A stretch of 64,000 bases of DNA from a bacterium (GTDB lineage Bacteria > UBA6262 > WVXT01). How positions within the stretch are numbered: position 1 is the first letter of the stretch; every line of letters begins with the position of its first letter. The position numbers are program-made. The DNA lies in the NCBI GenBank assembly GCA_046759165.1, contig JBHIBS010000001.1, positions 22,304 through 86,303 on the forward strand. The letters are read 5' to 3'. This document shows positions 1 to 3,000 of this stretch, piece by piece.

Positions 1-3000
1 GTGTTTATTTAAAGCAAAGTCACGCAAATTATGTATGCTAATCTTAACAATGTTTTTCTGTTGCGCCCGTTTTAAGATACTTTCCTGAATTATCCCTTCG
101 AACATTCGTGGAAATATAGTTATTACATCGACTTGCATCTTTGTCTTCAATTATAGTCCCTCGGGAAAATCGATTATCATTCTTTTCTTATTAATGTTTA
201 TTTCCTTAACCCATTTTCTTAAGGCGGGAAACAGAGTTTCTTTGCTGTCCTCTTTGATTACATAGATATCGTTTGCCCCTGTAGCAAAGATATCCACAAT
301 TTTTCCAAGCCTGCGAAGGCCTATTTTGTCTTCCGTAAAAACTTCCATTCCCATTAAATCTCGAACATAATAGACTCCCCTCTCTAAGGGAAGTCTCTTG
401 CAAGCAACCTTATATTTCTTTATCTGATCTGCCTGACTTATAGTATCATATCCAGCAAATTTCAGGATAATGAATCCCTTCTGTTCTCTCATGCCAACTA
501 TCTGGGCTTCCTTTTTCTCCCCATATGGGCTCACTAAATAGACATTCTTCATAGTTTCTAAAAGACCCCTTCGACCTCTTGCGACGAAGCTTGACAGGGG
601 CAGGTAGGAAATAAGTCTCACTTCACCTTTGCGTCCCTGTATATTAATGATCTCTCCCAAAAAGACTAAGTTTTTATCATTTTCTTCCATTTATTTAATG
701 ACCTCGAGCGTGACTCGATGCCCCGACTTCACTGAGCCAGCATTAAGCAATGTGCGAAGTGCCTTAATAGTCCTTCCCTGTTTACCGATTACTTTACCTA
801 TGTCTTGCTTTGCTGTGGAGAGCTCCAAAATTATATTTTGTTCTCCTTTTACTTCTTTAACTTTGACCTCTTTGGGGTTATCTACTAATTTTTTAACTAT
901 ATAAAGAACCAGTTCTTTCAACTTTTTCTCCAAAAAATCACATAATAGTGAGTATTTGATGCCTAATAATTATTCCTTTTCCCTGCGAATTTTCAATAGA
1001 CTCTTTACTGTTGGTGAAAGCAACGCACCCTTCTCTATCCAAGCCCTAATCTTTTCTTGCAAGAAAGTGACCTTCTCCCTGCCCCCCCCGCAGGGGTTGT
1101 AATGTCCAAGAATTTCTAATACTCGTCCATCCCTTCTCTTTCTCGAATCAACTGCCACAATAGTGTAGAAGGGACGCTTGTGTGTCCCGATTCTCTTCAA
1201 TCTAATCATTATTGACATGTTTCCTCCCTTTGAGATCAGCAACAATAAAATCCCAGTTTTTCTCTCGTCATTTACTTACTGGCGGCTCTCCTCTGAGAGA
1301 GGTCGCACAATTTGCGAAGATTCTCAATTGCTTTCCTGGGATTGGGTGAGCCGAAAATATACTCACCAGCGACCAGAATATTTGCGCCGCTATCTATTGC
1401 GGACTGCGCAGTTTCAAGATTGATTCCACCGTCAACTTGAATATCTACATCGAGTCGACTTTTTAAAATGTAGTCCCGGAGCTGAGCAATCTTGGGTAAG
1501 ACAGAACTAATGAACGTCTGCCCCCCATAGCCCGGCTCTACTGTCATCAACAGGGCCATATCGATTTGATTTAAGTGCTCCAACAAAGACTCAATGGGCG
1601 TCTGGGGATTGAGAGCCACTCCAACTTCCAATCCCTCCTTTTTAATTGCTTTAATTTCCTCTCTAAGATTAATACAAGCTTCTGAGTTAACTGTAATAAT
1701 TTTTGCTCCAGCCTGAGCAAAGACAGATATAAATTTCTCAGGATTCTCTATCATCAGGTGGACGTCGAGTGGAAGTTTGGTTATCCCCTTTATGGAACTG
1801 ACGACCCTAGGTCCAAAGGAAATATTGGGAACGAAGTGACCATCCATAATATCGAGATGTAACATATCAGCTCCCGCTTCTTCTATAAGCGAAATCAACT
1901 CCTTTAAGTTAGTAAAGTCGCAGCTTAGAATAGAAGGAGCAATCCTAATCACAATTCTATCTCCTCTACCAGAATACTGTTAACAAATATTCTCGCTTTT
2001 GCTTTCCCCAAAACTTGTATGGGCAATGAAATCTTCGTCCCAGGAGAATGCATTTTATGGTACACTTCCCTTTCACCTTGGCCATCCACTACCACAATGA
2101 GAACATCCTTATCTAAAACTCCCTGGGAAACCTCATAATATATCATTGCTTCACGGATTATTTTGTGCACTGCGCTTTTCTTTGCTACAGTTACTTTGAC
2201 TATAGTATCTTCATCGATGATTTCATCCCAGTGAGGTTCTTGTTTTAAAATAGTCCCTTCGGGAACGTTATCATTTACAGTTTCTTTAATTTCACCTAGG
2301 GGTAAATTCATATCTCGCAATATCTTCCGGGCGCTGCGAATATTTTGGCCAAGCAGATTGACCATTAAAGGCACCTCTGCTTCTCTGGCTGGACCAAGAC
2401 TTACTACCAGATTAATCATGCTTCCCCTAGCAACGATCTCTTCAGGTGAAGGATCTTGCGCTATTACAAAGTCTTTTTTTATCTCCTCCGAGTAAATTCC
2501 TGTCTCCTCGCCCAGAACCAATCCTGCCTGACGGAGGAGAATCTTTGCCTCGCGTAGAGACTTCCCTACAAGCTGAGTAACGAAGATAACCTGACCGCCA
2601 GAACTAACGGTAACTTTAATAACTTTTCCTTCCTTCACTACCGACCCTGGCAGCGGCTCCTGGAAAATAATACTGCCATCTGGTATATTCTCATTATATT
2701 GTTCACCAACTTTCTTAATATATAAGTCCTGGTCACTTAAAATCTGGAGAGCCTGCCCCACAGTCTTTCCGGTCAGATCAGGAACCATAACCTCTTTCTT
2801 CTGATGAACAACTACCCCCATCAGTTGGTTGAAGATGAGAATTCCAAATACTATAGAGGCGGAAGTAGCCAGAATGAGCTTAATAAATTTTTTTATCCCC
2901 TGTTGGAGAGAAAAAAAACCAAGTAAGATAACAGAAATTAGAATTAGAATCCCTAATATTACTTTCATCAGTTGACCTTTAACGATAAGCTCTTCACATT

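Follow-up and report, generated by a model that had tools for sequence, protein, structure and literature searches.

The DNA analysed here (the window) is a stretch of 64,000 nucleotides, positions 22304-86303 of a contig from a genome of the phylum UBA6262 that is 92.4% complete; the survey's finding that drew attention to it had set the start of the window at contig position 1, which was incorrect. At the start of the window, genes on the minus strand are ordered PASTA-repeat protein, rpe, rpsP, khpA, rimM and trmD (Table 1), and on the contig outside the window trmD continues and is followed by rplS. Because the stop codon of rpe and the start codon of rpsP are 53 nt apart, the locus has no space for ffh. 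The gene order rpsP-khpA-rimM-trmD-rplS without ffh upstream, as described in the survey, was thus confirmed, with rpe adjoining rpsP and with rplS outside the window.

Table 1. Features at the rpsP locus (positions within the window).
Feature	Position	Strand	Basis
trmD, first 50 codons; rest beyond window edge	1..150	-	ORF list; tblastn with E. coli TrmD, E 2e-68
rimM	151..690	-	TIGR02273 over cut-off
khpA-type KH-domain RNA-binding protein	691..933	-	NF002201 over cut-off; NF001748 KH-domain match
rpsP (bS16)	970..1218	-	TIGR00002 over cut-off
rpe-rpsP spacer, 53 nt; usual ffh site in other bacteria	1219..1271	-	sequence
rpe, ribulose-phosphate 3-epimerase	1272..1952	-	TIGR01163 over cut-off
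PASTA-repeat membrane protein without kinase domain	1949..2968	-	matches only PASTA part of NF033483; synteny

No match to PF00448, the profile for Ffh and FtsY, was obtained in this genome, and E. coli Ffh and FtsY gave best tblastn E values of 0.11 and 0.18 in the same search that detected TrmD, L19, S16, RimM and RsmD. Among six-frame ORFs of at least 120 aa, the SRP-GTPase motif DTAGR was found in none of the 106 Walker-A matches and was present in both E. coli controls of the scan. The SRP RNA model RF00169 returned nothing at E ≤ 1, the site before dnaX where ffs was sought held no Rfam match, and the helix-8 pattern, a pattern of sequence only, had 0 exact matches and 12 with one mismatch. 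ftsY was absent from its place after smc. Fragments of a gene that we read as a WecG/TagA-like glycosyltransferase lie in several frames directly after smc (C13:16200-16920). SecY, SecA, SecD, SecF, YajC, YidC, trigger factor and PpiD are present, SecE was confirmed by profile, and SecG and TatC were identified by motif; the retention of SecYEG, SecA, SecDF and YidC noted in the survey therefore holds for this genome, SecG by motif only. An HD-domain-like ORF is located between yajC and secD (C11:46637-47296), an arrangement that is found in other phyla, and two DnaA-like matches were seen, on C6 (32522-33787) and C31 (tblastn 1628-2338, ATPase part only). Of 1710 rough ORFs, 202 have at least three predicted membrane helices, so there is no shortage of membrane-protein substrates.

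PF00448 was searched in 450 genomes of five phyla (hereafter the clade), and neither Ffh nor FtsY was found in any. For UBA6262 this agrees with the earlier claim: PF00448 reached cut-off in 0 of 12 genomes, as did PF02978 (the Ffh M domain), and the single weak PF00448 match proved to be an ABC-transporter-like ORF. Elusimicrobiota were represented by a sample of 401 genomes with seven candidates scored in each; PF00448 matched at E ≤ 1e-8 in two, and both matches were rejected as Ffh or FtsY, being situated behind flhA in flagellar operons and scoring best as FlhF. PF02978 was found in 0 of 332 Elusimicrobiota genomes in a search set to at least 90% completeness. The two genomes with flhF in a flagellar operon (G140 and G339) indicate that rare flagellated members, which are without the Ffh M domain, have kept a GTPase of the SRP family. 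The near-total loss claimed for Elusimicrobiota accordingly stands, the rare PF00448 matches in this sample being FlhF, and the earlier match in '1 of 121' genomes was probably FlhF as well. Three further phyla gave 0/26, 0/4 and 0/7 with PF00448, which supports SRP loss as a trait of the clade and extends it beyond the phyla originally named. Weak PF00448 matches listed as 'over cut-off' in four of five genomes covered the P-loop only and came from PilT-like, ExeA-like and ArsA-like ORFs. Two clade genomes are close to a single contig (G051, about 1.6 Mb with a contig of 1,588,979 bp; G042, about 1.1 Mb with a contig of 1,114,532 bp), and with all candidates scored neither contained a PF00448 match.

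Positive controls were recovered throughout. All 14 named control genomes were positive for both PF00448 and PF02978; within the clade, SecY and S16 were each found in 12/12 genomes of UBA6262, YidC in 60/61 and S16 in 31/31 Elusimicrobiota genomes, and SecA was over cut-off in 9/10 genomes. FlhF, a distant paralogue, was detected by the PF00448 search at E values of 1e-35 to 1e-42. SRP RNA was sought with RF00169 in 121 Elusimicrobiota genomes and with RF01854 in five genomes, in each case with 0 matches; RF00169 reaches cut-off in only 10 of 14 control genomes and does not equal the protein profiles in sensitivity. The survey had described SRP RNA as absent throughout UBA6262, and this was reproduced in the 2 of 12 genomes in which the RNA search was repeated. 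Among five other genomes, one (G447) had a sub-threshold RF00169 match (L279:820-1117, contig C14), which was identified as a metazoan-type 7SL RNA on a 1,124-bp contig and attributed to eukaryotic contamination of the bin.

Ffh, FtsY and SRP RNA could in principle be present and too diverged for recognition, or be missing systematically from the assemblies. Most of these genomes are MAGs (about 0.7-3.3 Mb among those listed), the RNA model misses some control genomes, and in fungi some SRP RNAs of non-canonical form were missed by searches (PMC4605306). Set against this, the searches picked up FlhF and even a eukaryotic 7SL contaminant, single-copy controls were recovered in 98-100% of genomes, no ORF of the present genome carries the SRP-GTPase motif, near single-contig genomes are without the genes, and the usual ffh site is closed in place. 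We regard a hidden SRP as extremely improbable. In five related phyla neither ffh nor ftsY can be detected, nor can SRP RNA in any of the genomes searched for it; the absence is real and wider than had been stated.

Gene order around rpsP was compared across the clade. Entry to the other phyla came from a SecY scan of genome contigs, which yielded 80 loci, mostly titled Elusimicrobia. From 48 rpsP positions found, 41 loci were read, and ffh was present in none. As a synteny control only, being drawn from general bacteria and not from close sisters, 80 metagenome contigs were picked by TrmD motifs; 48 were uninformative, and in 29 of the remaining 32 ffh stands directly before rpsP. In the clade, rpe occupies that place in 27/41 loci with gaps of 1-465 nt: in 12/12 of UBA6262, in 14/24 of Elusimicrobiota and in the sole locus of the phylum of G012, hence in three of the five phyla. 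The four loci read from the other two phyla (those of G019 and G443) have other genes before rpsP. A PASTA-repeat protein is encoded upstream of rpe in 27/41 loci, making PASTA-rpe-rpsP a conserved junction, and khpA is kept in 39/41. Between khpA and trmD, rimM was undetected by blastp at E 1e-4 in L162-L164 and in many Elusimicrobiota loci, where it may have diverged or been lost.

Two trees were built by quick searches with SH-aLRT support only. The SecY tree, which took 32 of 81 clade rows and 45 of 150 representatives, separated the 32 five-phylum rows and two representatives nested among them from 43 others (SH-aLRT 99). In the tree of S16, TrmD and L19, all 31 ffh-bearing control contigs fell outside the clade (SH-aLRT 94); this tree should not be over-read, since L274, an ffh-less contig whose gene content looks unrelated, was drawn into the clade. 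The grouping is also favoured by the sampling, because the clade loci were chosen for the closeness of their SecY to that of the genome studied here, and the extent of the loss given by the trees and counts is that within the groups sampled. Neighbouring phyla include Goldbacteria and Firestonebacteria and, according to Meheust et al. (10.1101/765248), Desantisbacteria and Omnitrophota. With the five phyla forming one side of a branch in the SecY tree, one loss is preferred over several: very probably the SRP pathway was lost once, in their common ancestor, and the loss left rpe joined to rpsP. The contrary view, that SRP was lost several times in parallel among these phyla, has precedent in the independent losses of Leptospira and Dehalococcoides (PMC4758666), and the rpe-rpsP junction is missing from the four loci of two phyla, with sister phyla lying outside the sample. 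It is nevertheless hard to square with retention of ffh or ftsY in 0 of 450 genomes, with no decayed remnant seen, or with five phyla that stand together in two trees and have SecY changes in common, and we judge it decidedly unlikely.

The shared SecY changes were defined by comparison of 40 clade sequences with 119 outside representatives (E. coli numbering). At Q93 the clade has Ser in 40/40, against Gln in 95/119 outside; at P276 it has Ala in 40/40, against Pro in 113/119. Asp replaces N270 in 37/40, and the position equivalent to L381 is Val in 34/40. In a larger count of scored loci, P276A occurred in 80/80 and Q93S in 78/78, compared with 4/119 and 11/119 outside. A Trp in loop C5 (39/40 in the clade) is a biased observation, as it formed part of the scan pattern. 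The SecY C-terminus reads GR[WY]FN[VI] or a close variant in 74/81 clade loci. Among 150 representatives this tail was met in one sequence by the strict pattern and in two once a looser variant was allowed, and both of these sequences nest in the clade; it is missing in 7/81 clade loci, including all three from the SRP-less phylum of G012. P276A is not confined to the clade: SecY clusters labelled Clostridium, deltaproteobacterium and Brevinematia have it as well, and clostridia possess SRP.

Mutants Q93R and P292S of yeast Sec61 were reportedly described by Junne et al. in 2007, at sites that we take to be equivalent to Q93 and P276 of SecY; in the available part of Trueman et al. 2012 (PMC3518225) these two residues go unmentioned. 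Helices TM2b and TM7 belong to the lateral gate and carry a conserved proline close to the pore ring (PMC8675477), which we infer to be P276, in TM7. Loops C4 and C5 of SecY bind FtsY, SecA and uL23 (PMC4602035). A prl-like (relaxed-gate) SecY would translocate or insert proteins with weakened signals or without targeting factors; what was seen in the clade SecY is sequence changes in TM2b and TM7 only. When SecA (815 residues) and the 33-residue tail of SecY were modelled as a complex, the score was 0.26 against a mark of 0.32, a value obtained without folded controls. As judged from the sequences, the SecY changes may compensate for the loss of SRP; they are perhaps neutral marks of the clade, since they coincide with one evolutionary event.

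Other candidate compensators were considered in turn. Compensation by the YidC tail was rejected, as tails measured 0-16 residues in 30 sequences compared with 12 in E. coli; YidC gave a single match in 58 of 60 positive genomes. The SecA of this genome (C9:32351-36265, plus strand) is 1305 aa long and carries in its second nucleotide-binding domain an E/K/L-rich, probably helical insert of 375 residues, which is not clade-wide, given that eight other full-length SecA frames are 881-964 aa, and was rejected for that reason. Three genomes have very long ORFs that include a SecA_DEAD-like domain and are distinct from canonical SecA (3546 aa, G004 C39; 2971 aa, G001 C34; 7327 aa, G025 C38). No obvious exit-tunnel extensions were seen by eye on uL22, uL23, uL24, uL29 or bL17. 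An ArsA/Get3-like ATPase was discarded as a targeting replacement, being full-length in 1/5 genomes and in neither G051 nor G042; in the present genome its gene stands behind a small ORF ending in Cys-Cys, a pair that we take to be a CstA-linked system. No replacement factor was found among those checked (YidC tail, SecA insert, ArsA/Get3-like ATPase).

A clade-specific protein or RNA-binding module that escaped recognition might still have replaced SRP, such as KhpA-Jag delivering mRNA to YidC/SecY, or a novel partner of the SecY tail. The invariant FN of that tail looks like a binding motif, yidC is followed by jag in 30/30 Elusimicrobiota loci and khpA recurs in the rpsP loci counted above, and SRP bypass by mRNA targeting is possible in E. 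coli (10.1101/2022.11.21.517368). On the other hand, when the ORFs surrounding secY at 81 loci were roughly clustered and the 40 largest clusters inspected by eye, no conserved unknown gene was seen, khpA is common in ffh-bearing control contigs too, and the full-length ArsA/Get3-like ATPase is confined to one genome in five. Replacement of this kind we consider unlikely.

Direct docking on a retuned SecY is the reading that we favour, because the known bypasses do not fit and SecY is what differs. No dedicated targeting GTPase would be needed for membrane proteins to reach SecYEG/YidC: ribosomes during translation, or SecA bound to ribosomes, would dock directly on a SecY in which the lateral-gate TM7 proline and the TM2b glutamine have been replaced (P276A, Q93S), and the aromatic GR[WY]FN[VI] tail, added on the cytosolic side, would be a probable docking motif. 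SecA is able to target co-translationally (PMC8082313), and SRP loss is survivable in E. coli, with slower initiation (PMC7844537). Taken by itself, this route falls slightly short of an even chance in our estimate; taken as a whole, a single ancestral loss of SRP together with direct docking on retuned SecY is the probable account. More tentatively, and with less likelihood than the route itself, the clade may have had its own conserved co-translational route since its ancestor, built on a remodelled-gate SecY and the GR[WY]FN docking motif, possibly for an undescribed factor.

SRP is treated as universal, and in E. coli it is essential under normal conditions. An ancient loss over five phyla with genomes of ordinary size would mean that SRP is permanently dispensable, and the clade constitutes a natural experiment on membrane-protein insertion without it. 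SRP-independent insertion is testable here, as there are Elusimicrobiota in culture, among them E. minutum and Endomicrobium proavitum, and E. coli depletion strains can receive the SecY changes. GTDB and CheckM marker sets count ffh and ftsY, and completeness scores that do so would be biased downwards for the clade. A recent diversity census (PMC11740963) has COG0541 (Ffh) among its five markers, and this marker is blind to the clade.

The loss itself is of a known kind: E. minutum, Leptospira and Dehalococcoides have been published as having lost SRP, and Elusimicrobia as a group in which it is scarce. The survey had put the prior art at a single cultured case, an understatement in that Harris & Goldman 2021 (PMC7987157) had already reported few Elusimicrobia with SRP homologues, with one Ffh and one FtsY so labelled; those authors also proposed that SecY may have evolved to compensate and called for a targeted study. 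The main text of the preprint by Meheust et al. (10.1101/765248), which describes the Elusimicrobiota lineage as mostly free-living, contains neither 'SRP' nor 'signal recognition', and its supplements could bear on the point. Complete multi-phylum SRP loss or a SecY signature was not stated in the literature searched, most subscription papers being outside its scope; more may be stated in publications on the genomes of E. minutum or Endomicrobium and on SRP databases. As far as that search goes, novelty lies in the spread over five phyla, in the closed rpe-rpsP junction and in the particular SecY positions.

Elusimicrobium minutum, like Dehalococcoides, has been listed as without SRP RNA and protein (Matelska et al. 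2016, PMC4779614). The present loss is the same one in the same lineage, but where those reports covered one genome or spoke of 'few' or 'some', Ffh/FtsY was found here in 0 of 401 genomes, the loss takes in four further phyla, and particular SecY positions are specified. Leptospira, Dehalococcoides and apparently SAR86 have no ffh, ftsY or SRP RNA and keep Sec (Fouts et al. 2016, PMC4758666); those are losses at the level of a genus or lineage, in contrast to five phyla here, and the novel Sec-linked insert of Leptospira has no counterpart seen beside secY in the clade. In Streptococcus mutans, YidC2, and more generally Oxa1-type basic C-terminal tails, bypass SRP (10.1101/2022.11.21.517368, PMC8675477). 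SRP-independent insertion is common to both cases, whereas the clade has neither a long basic YidC tail nor a second YidC in the 58 of 60 genomes with a single match. The reduced endosymbionts Sulcia, Carsonella and Hodgkinia have also lost SRP RNA and protein (PMC4779614); unlike theirs, clade genomes reach 3.3 Mb, and the genome studied here carries a normal load of polytopic membrane proteins (202/1710).
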